DNA of 64,000 bases from Octopus vulgaris. Taxonomy: Eukaryota. Under the pieces are notes generated by a model. The model did no database searches and had not been told where the DNA came from. It worked only from the letters and a program-made list of their open reading frames with translations. Below, one piece after another: positions 9,640 to 9,687 of the stretch (the stretch's first letter is position 1; the number at the start of each line of letters is the position of its first letter). Both the position numbers and the translations under genes were made by a program. Location of the stretch: contig OX597831.1 in assembly GCA_951406725.2 (NCBI GenBank), positions 11,656,001-11,720,000 on the forward strand. Direction: 5' to 3'.

Positions 9640-9687
9640 GTCTCTGATGAAGGGATATCCATAATATCCCAGAAACAGCTGTAAGAC
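9640..9687 (+). ncRNA. Minimal type I hammerhead ribozyme with a fully canonical core
   Basis: Stem I GTCT/AGAC; CTGATGA; A; stem II GGGATAT/ATATCCC; A; GAAA; stem III C-AGCT-G (palindrome ACAGCTGT); GUA triplet, predicted cleavage after 9683. Confidence 0.85.

Follow-up and report, generated by a model that had tools for sequence, protein, structure and literature searches.

A putative Penelope-type small hammerhead ribozyme in a high-copy repeat of Octopus vulgaris

Structure of the motif at 9640-9687

The window analysed here, a stretch of 64,000 nucleotides of Octopus vulgaris DNA, is AT-rich and dense in microsatellites and dispersed repeats, and it holds LINE-type reverse transcriptase (RT) and transposase-type fragments. 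On the forward strand, positions 9640-9687 parse at the sequence level as a small type I hammerhead with intact core boxes, made up of the following elements.

9640-9643 with 9684-9687 (+): helix I, 4 bp
9644-9650 (+): core box, intact
9652-9658 with 9664-9670 (+): helix II, 7 bp with a 5-nt loop
9672-9674 (+): GAA, core element of the motif
9675-9682 (+): helix III, a perfect 8-nt palindrome
GUA triplet (+): N17 is A9683, with the predicted cut after 9683

The stem lengths, palindromic stem III, intact core and coordinates given in the original prediction all agree with this parse. CUGANGA, GAAA and UH are arranged around three helices at 9644-9683, as in type I hammerheads, and the long helix II, the short helix I, the unpaired base between positions 9 and 10.1 and the palindromic helix III are those of the hammerheads in pseudo-LTRs of Penelope-like elements (PLEs). 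Two adenines, A9651 and A9671, remain unpaired and opposed between the core and helix II (an A.A apposition). The former is the usual PLE bulge and the latter, on the 3' side, is not usual. Since helix II is flanked by these two adenines, with the extra A9671 keeping it from joining G12 directly, and since there is no Rfam hammerhead match, the motif is not a canonical type I hammerhead, and the label "canonical" in the original prediction was wrong. The core box includes an ATG whose frame closes with a stop 5 codons later.

Self-cleavage after N17 is predicted from this model of the motif. The best fold of the monomer (-12.3 kcal/mol) pairs the first three bases of the core with the palindrome, and the exact hammerhead fold has -8.8 kcal/mol and a probability of 0.001; the fold z-score of 9636-9691 is -1.9. 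When two copies of 9636-9691 are folded together, the 8-bp palindrome joins them at -35.7 kcal/mol, compared to -24.6 kcal/mol for two monomers, and helix I is replaced by another local hairpin in the best dimer fold. As such, the folding models fit a motif that would be off as a monomer and would need a partner and perhaps the help of a protein.

Related motifs in the window

The 9640 motif had been presented as the best of at least seven hammerheads from about five families. All seven named sites exist; only three of them (9644, 3155 and 58263) keep an intact core and the other four are mutated. Two further motifs with intact cores were found beyond these, at 17291 (-) and, weaker, at 28699 (-), so that intact cores occur at 5 of the 9 listed sites of the window. 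The sites other than 9640, with one flanking repeat, are as follows.

3152..3247 (+): intact-core motif 3155, with a long interrupted helix II, U.U at its base, an 8-nt palindrome and a 3-bp helix I
3064-3102 and 3335-3373: 39-nt inverted repeat flanking the 3152 motif
17183..17295 (-): additional motif 17291, with an intact core, a helix II spanning 86 nt, a 4-bp helix I and the 8-nt palindrome of the 3152 motif
26895..27429: head-to-head pair of one family, with motifs at 26949-26996 (-; U4A at 26990) and 27303-27342 (+; U4C at 27305)
28665..28703 (-): additional weaker candidate 28699, with an intact core, a 3-bp helix II, U.U at the base and an 8-nt palindrome
57509..57560 (-): sister copy of the 9640 family, core at 57556; decayed (U4C, weak helix II), with the same palindrome
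58228..58269 (-): motif 58263, a U3-A8 core variant with a 6-bp helix I, a 4-bp helix II, a 6-nt palindrome and C17
58370..58405 (+): decayed motif 58374, with A6U and a non-palindromic helix III; found only at the two-defect level

The estimate of about five families held, with self-BLAST pairing 9640 with 57509 (78% over 69 nt) and 26950 with 27301 (88% over 118 nt). By textbook criteria it is 58263, not 9640, that is the most canonical motif of the window. Its helix II is closed by a G-C pair, a further stem follows past an internal loop on helix I, and its fold z-score is -2.2. A perfect 42-nt palindrome (58299-58340) separates the decayed motif 58374 from the 58228 motif, which faces it head to head and belongs to a different family. 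At the base of helix II the sister copy 57556 has an A-U pair plus a 3' A, and at 28699 a microsatellite ends within the 5' strand of helix I. The single weak sites 12064 (an additional descriptor match), 28699 and 58374 may be chance look-alikes.

The helix III palindromes vary among the families, comprising three different 8-mers, one 6-mer and one 4-mer. Judged from sequence, these differences between families amount to family-level covariation for the putative dimer helix, the 9640 family contributing two copies only. Opposite-strand pairs 100-700 bp apart (26990/27305 and 58263/58374) and many solo copies in several diverged families are also present, both being features of PLE pseudo-LTR hammerheads.

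Comparison with shuffled sequence and Rfam

Chance was assessed with dinucleotide shuffles made in 500-nt blocks of the window sequence. The descriptors were adjusted once the sites were known and their figures are therefore somewhat generous; the margin for 9640 is large. A strict descriptor gave 1 match in the window versus 0 in 30 block dinucleotide shuffles, and when the descriptor made no room for unpaired bases, 9640 escaped it and its 1 match was unrelated. The zero-defect descriptor returned 5 matches (3155, 9644, 17291, 58263 and 12064) compared to a mean of 0.04 and a maximum of 1 in 100 shuffles; the match at 12064, which is AT-rich, is probably due to chance. With one defect there were 11 matches versus 2.56 in shuffles (maximum 7), and with two defects and a helix II of at least 4 bp there were 9 versus 1.47 (maximum 3 in 30). 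The motif rate thus exceeds that of shuffled sequence, as the original prediction required, except at the loosest setting, where 47 matches versus 36.8, with 2 of 30 shuffles reaching 47, are not separable from chance. When the palindrome was not demanded, 6 of 9 descriptor matches were nevertheless palindromic, compared to 22 of 304 in 200 shuffles.

The Rfam search, which had been proposed as a check, provided no hammerhead match for 9640 or elsewhere in the window. A scan of the whole window gave 0 matches at the gathering level, and among the best 150 of 435 further matches all were hairpin or microsatellite noise with no hammerhead. Similarly, none of the 4 matches within 9560-9760 (E<=10) and none of the 13 weak matches within 58150-58450 was a hammerhead, the 58263 motif being absent among the latter. 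The bare core pattern was found at 34 loci in sequence collections (30 metagenome, 4 viral), and 32 of these lacked a convincing helix I, which indicates that core boxes alone arise by chance. Two collection loci, L001 909-939 (+) and L012 1430-1462 (-), share the 9640 palindrome and have a helix I of 5-6 bp with a decayed or poor helix II. They lie on eukaryote-looking contigs of 36% GC from one metagenome assembly, and no PLE ORF was evident by eye in their frames.

Copy number and conservation of the 9640 family

Part of 9300-9760 is present in 20 of 24 listed sequencing runs, and half or more of it in 3; no run recorded as RNA is listed among the carriers, which is neutral as to expression. 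Four of the 24 runs (X2, X3, X5 and X15, the last a presumed RNA run) were mapped as contigs on 9240-9760. The summed contig depth in X2 was 45.7 on the unique flank, 8,900-17,200 on 9546-9635, 201,000-437,000 on 9636-9689 and 9,500 on 9690-9707; summed contig depth does not equal copy number and is read only as very many copies with a motif common to subfamilies. X3, X5 and X15 had the same depth shape, and in all four runs the peak was about 10-30 times the flanks and confined to 9636-9689. In the contig pile-up, contigs have loose ends at 9634-9640 and 9686-9690, with other flanks beyond. Taken together, the depth peak and the loose ends with other flanks mean that subfamilies which have otherwise diverged keep the motif in common. 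The 9640 motif is therefore a conserved part of a high-copy repeat group, and the claim of high copy number was borne out, as the contigs of all four runs pile up on exactly this motif.

Set against the pile-up majority, the copy at 9640 has 4 differences in 9546-9602 and 5 in 9698-9728, and none of the 40 variants listed falls within 9603-9697, short contigs being prone to under-report variants. In the per-kind variant totals of X2, the G changes, A>G and A>C are all placed among the listed variants and one A>T is unplaced. On this moderate evidence, tempered by the A-U pair plus 3' A of the sister copy 57556, most of the 9640 family probably has the A.A apposition, which would then not reflect decay of the 9640 copy. 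No contig spanning the motif at the 9640 locus was found in the four runs. The left flank together with the start of the insertion had 0 differences over 9240-9613 in X2 and 1 difference over 9453-9591 in X3. This flank-plus-insertion is thus common to two runs that carry two organism labels.

Insertion layout

The surroundings of the 9640 motif comprise two repeat pieces.

9635..9762 (+): motif-bearing repeat piece, which gives way 80 nt past the cut to the (AT)n array 9763-9900
9540..9637 (-): second repeat piece, with a depth of 8,900-17,200 in X2 versus 45.7 on the unique flank

We interpret the first piece as what a 5'-truncated Penelope-like element leaves of its 3' (pseudo-LTR) end. The repeat of the sister copy at 57509 ends 73 nt past its own cut, also at an AT array, and the two copies of the family share nothing clear upstream of about 9635. 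Opposite-strand joints were observed in contigs of X2, X3 and X5 (9637-9760, 9637-9757, 9631-9760, 9621-9759 and 9601-9757; 1-2 contigs each per run), and the second piece is probably, albeit tentatively, a downstream stretch of that element in inverted orientation. For 9640, then, the end at TA sequence expected of a Penelope insertion is present, and the inversion is tentative.

The pair at 26895-27429 contains a 140-nt inverted repeat with an extension of about 30 nt (27400-27429) on the right copy only, which recurs inside. This is the tandem/inverted layout with a one-sided tail known from Penelope insertions; inverted truncated copies, the one-sided tail and an AT-rich or (TA)n target all occur together at 26895-27429. 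Across the window, a TA-type array lies at most 200 nt downstream of 5 of 9 cut sites, compared to 17.5% of 5000 random non-repeat positions, and no TA array lies within 200 nt at the other 4. No tandem array holding any of the motifs was detected by self-BLAST of the whole window or by TRF on 7000-13700 and 56500-59500. The label of non-LTR retrozyme, which the original prediction had offered beside the Penelope one, was consequently not upheld.

Coding sequence, other repeats and host genes

Pfam was searched with 183 frame pieces (177 stop-to-stop pieces of at least 45 aa that are not of low complexity, and 6 chosen ORFs). None of the 183 matched the GIY-YIG family, and the only RT match was RVT_1 (E 7e-12) at 14469-14849, LINE-like and far from any motif. 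Remains of a broken LINE-type ORF2 extend over 14110-15198 (-) in three frames. Frame pieces at 57705-57872 (-) and 17440-17680 (-), which by eye we take to resemble the C-terminus of the PLE GIY-YIG endonuclease, stand 150-400 nt upstream of motifs 57556 and 17291. For the pieces 57705-57872 (-) and 17536-17649 (-) there was no database match, with 0 of 21 candidates scored, a weak negative for pieces this short and decayed. No RT-GIY-YIG ORF was found beside any motif in the window, as expected of truncated copies. Within the window, ORF-less elements would look like 5'-truncated ends of coding elements, and the literature takes truncated Penelope-like elements as the default.

Several other repeats were noted. 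A 122-codon open frame at 58486-58854 (+), 85 nt downstream of the 58374 motif, resembles the C-terminus of a non-LTR RT protein; it has no Pfam match. Transposase-like fragments at 18255-18650, 19005-19421 and 21967-22149 (+), with weak transposase-type HTH matches at 19005 and 21967, are assumed to be Tc1/mariner-like. A 147-bp satellite (12502-12990, 13471-13574 and 15539-15741) comprises 3 tandem copies at 95% and dispersed units and holds no hammerhead motif. A large inverted duplication, 94% identical, surrounds a trinucleotide array (7270-7763 and 8003-8534). A SINE-like family has about ten copies, 70-90% identical (2712-3032, 9083-9230, 23050-23195, 30530-30880, 44644-45087, 45283-45790, 55390-55797, 56939-57155 and 59540-59975), and a second one occurs at 39114-39226, 49147-49256 and 50973-51408; the SINE-like repeats have the look of those known from octopus. 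A repeat present at 28361-28472 and 49664-49762 has one half in direct and one half in inverted orientation when the two copies are compared.

The 64-kb window yielded no recognisable host gene. The original prediction had also suggested that such motifs could cut host transcripts or yield small circular RNAs; this is unsupported here, since no host gene was recognised, the intact copies are solo, and published motifs cleave weakly, as dimers or with the element protein.

Origin of the motif and alternative explanations

The 9640 motif is most likely (at a probability of roughly 0.8) a small type I hammerhead of a Penelope-like element pseudo-LTR, left in a 5'-truncated end. The broader reading, that the window carries Penelope-type small type I hammerheads of several families in a high-copy repeat group, is supported. 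The Penelope pseudo-LTR type proposed in the original prediction on the basis of the palindromic helix III was supported by the architecture, the palindrome enrichment and the layout, as compared with the accessible text of PMC4209133 and Craig 2021.

In such an element the hammerhead would sit in the pseudo-LTR, some 60-90 nt short of the 3' end of the element, and target-primed reverse transcription would start just downstream of the hammerhead and usually abort early. Short, 5'-truncated and often inverted ends would then be left in TA repeats, with the hammerhead kept and the ORF lost. In the parent tandem transcript, the palindromic helix III could join two copies into a dimer that cuts after N17 (9683), such cutting being weak and possibly aided by the element protein. 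The solo copies of the window would be by-products, most of them dead or decaying, with 9640 still matching its family. We infer the link to an RT-GIY-YIG ORF, the dimer cleavage in the parent and the lack of function of the solo copy. Against this explanation speak the failure to find a PLE protein among the 183 frame pieces, the 4 of 9 cut sites with no TA array within 200 nt, and the folding models, with their probability of 0.001 for the monomer and the replaced helix I of the dimer. Likewise, the inverted piece 9540-9637, of about 98 nt, is longer than the published tail of 30-40 nt, with few contigs to define it.

An unlikely alternative, and the reading of the original prediction, is that the 9640 family is a short non-autonomous element, such as a PLE-derived SINE-like element or a dispersed retrozyme monomer, which is transcribed, cuts itself, perhaps circularises and borrows the PLE protein. 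No ORF was found beside any motif, the summed depth on the motif is very high, and many contigs have one U-rich upstream flank and one downstream flank in common. Motif 58263 has canonical, retrozyme-like proportions, and the accessible literature proposes that retrozymes come from PLE pseudo-LTRs (10.64898/2026.07.22.740005) and describes circles in mussel (PMC7229834). However, no motif stands in a 150-450 bp tandem repeat in the self-BLAST and TRF searches above, the two copies of the 9640 family have no clear likeness upstream of about 9635, as expected of variable truncation, and the inverted pairs and the tail are marks of PLE insertion. Retrozyme identity at these loci was rejected for want of tandem arrays. 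An extended version, also quite improbable, envisages a lineage-wide active subclass with A.A or U.U (8-nt palindrome, sometimes a 50-70 nt insert) and a non-autonomous 9640 family of thousands of copies, whose transcripts would dimerise in trans, with host RNAs cutting each other or giving small circles.

That the host keeps the 9640 copy as a cutter of one of its own transcripts, say within an intron or UTR, is very improbable. The intact core, the absence of listed differences from the pile-up majority inside the motif compared to 9 in the flanks, and the flank-plus-insertion common to X2 and X3 with their two organism labels are compatible with such use. However, a match to the family in the family-conserved part needs no host selection, only 40 of 65 variants are listed and short contigs under-report them, no host gene was recognised in the window and no contig spans the motif at its locus. 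Furthermore, solo PLE motifs have no or weak cleavage in vitro in the accessible parts of PMC4209133 and PMC11167929. Chance look-alikes in an AT-rich, low-complexity window are hardly credible as the explanation, even though Rfam gave no hammerhead match, the loosest descriptor found 47 versus 36.8, 32 of 34 collection loci lacked helix I and the fold z-score is only -1.9. For 9640 this reading is refuted by the depth peak on the motif alone, the descriptor excess (5 versus 0.04) and the palindrome enrichment; the second copy in the window also speaks against it.

These results extend to a further animal genome a pattern known since 2014, namely thousands of small hammerheads as Penelope-like remains. 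The A.A-closed helix II, seemingly a family state, is a natural variant that bears on tolerance at 10.1-11.1. An A.A variant may already have been described by Lunse, Weinberg and Breaker (RNA Biol 14:1499). If trans cleavage of host RNAs were true, it would bear on what PLE hammerheads do; nothing here points to such cleavage.

Comparison with known systems

Regarding cephalopods, PLE expansion has been reported in Octopus vulgaris, in a main text that makes no mention of ribozymes in its accessible part (PMC13282606), and 235 Rfam hammerhead-1 matches have been counted in giant squid (PMC6962438). This count was the only published cephalopod hammerhead description found in the literature searched, subscription papers lying outside it.

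Retrozymes are 150-450 bp tandem repeats with a hammerhead per unit and give abundant circles in mussel (PMC7229834), and a derivation from PLE pseudo-LTRs has been proposed for them (10.64898/2026.07.22.740005). As far as the accessible text of these two sources goes, the window resembles non-LTR retrozymes in its ORF-less surroundings, type I hammerheads and high copy number, and in the canonical proportions of 58263; unlike them, it has no tandem array at any tested site. The axolotl retrozyme hammerhead HHR_Amex2 is like 9640 in its two-pair helix III capped by a tetraloop and in having a mismatch where helix II begins, U.U in the case of Amex2. Amex2 cleaves weakly alone (22% in 1 h) and better as a dimer (Cervera and De la Pena 2020, PMC7229834). 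In contrast to 9640, it makes loop-loop contacts and belongs to 350-bp tandem repeats from which circles arise, whereas the 9640 motif is solo, with A.A, and its helix II is longer and lacks any evident tertiary contact.

The anole Poseidon element PAc, as described in the accessible text of PMC11167929, has the motif less than 100 nt before the 3' end of the insertion and AT-rich targets, as at 9640. Unlike at 9640, the motif of PAc contains the start of the ORF, and it is cleaved only with the help of the protein. Reverse transcription of the anole PLE starts 111-118 nt past the start codon, which is itself 26 nt before the cut; cleavage is protein-assisted and dispensable for insertion, and no RNA ends were seen at the cut site (PMC11167929). 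The insertion layout of PLEs (tandem/inverted, with a 30-40 nt tail) and their TA targets have also been described (PMC8557442), and dimer cleavage of small hammerheads has been reviewed (PMC6765202).

The closest likeness is to the small hammerheads of the Penelope type (Cervera and De la Pena 2014, PMC4209133, in its accessible parts), which have a helix II of 7-8 bp, a helix I of 4-5 bp, an extra base between 9 and 10.1 and a palindromic helix III. In that study the monomer did not cleave and dimers cleaved at a low level. A U3-A8 variant and opposite-strand pairs 100-700 bp apart were described, and a genome can hold up to 9,000 motifs, of which most are solo and likely tied to truncated PLEs. 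In Fig. S3 of that study, an 8-nt palindrome is combined with A17 in rows from D. willistoni, and in one row GAAA is preceded by an extra A; the figure contains no cephalopod row and no legible row with unpaired bases on both sides, the latter being uncertain as its column alignment is lost. The 9640 motif departs from these rows in its second unpaired A before G12 (A.A), as do 3155 and 28699 in their U.U. Like the minimal and small palindromic variants of that study, 9640 is of type I with a helix II of 7 bp, a helix I of 4 bp and an unpaired base after A9; its first pair of helix II is G-C, helix III is palindromic, and A17 is combined with an 8-nt palindrome as in the D. willistoni row. Similarly, the window as a whole has the U3-A8 variant, opposite-strand pairs and many diverged families, in keeping with elements that were described there as thousands of solo copies.
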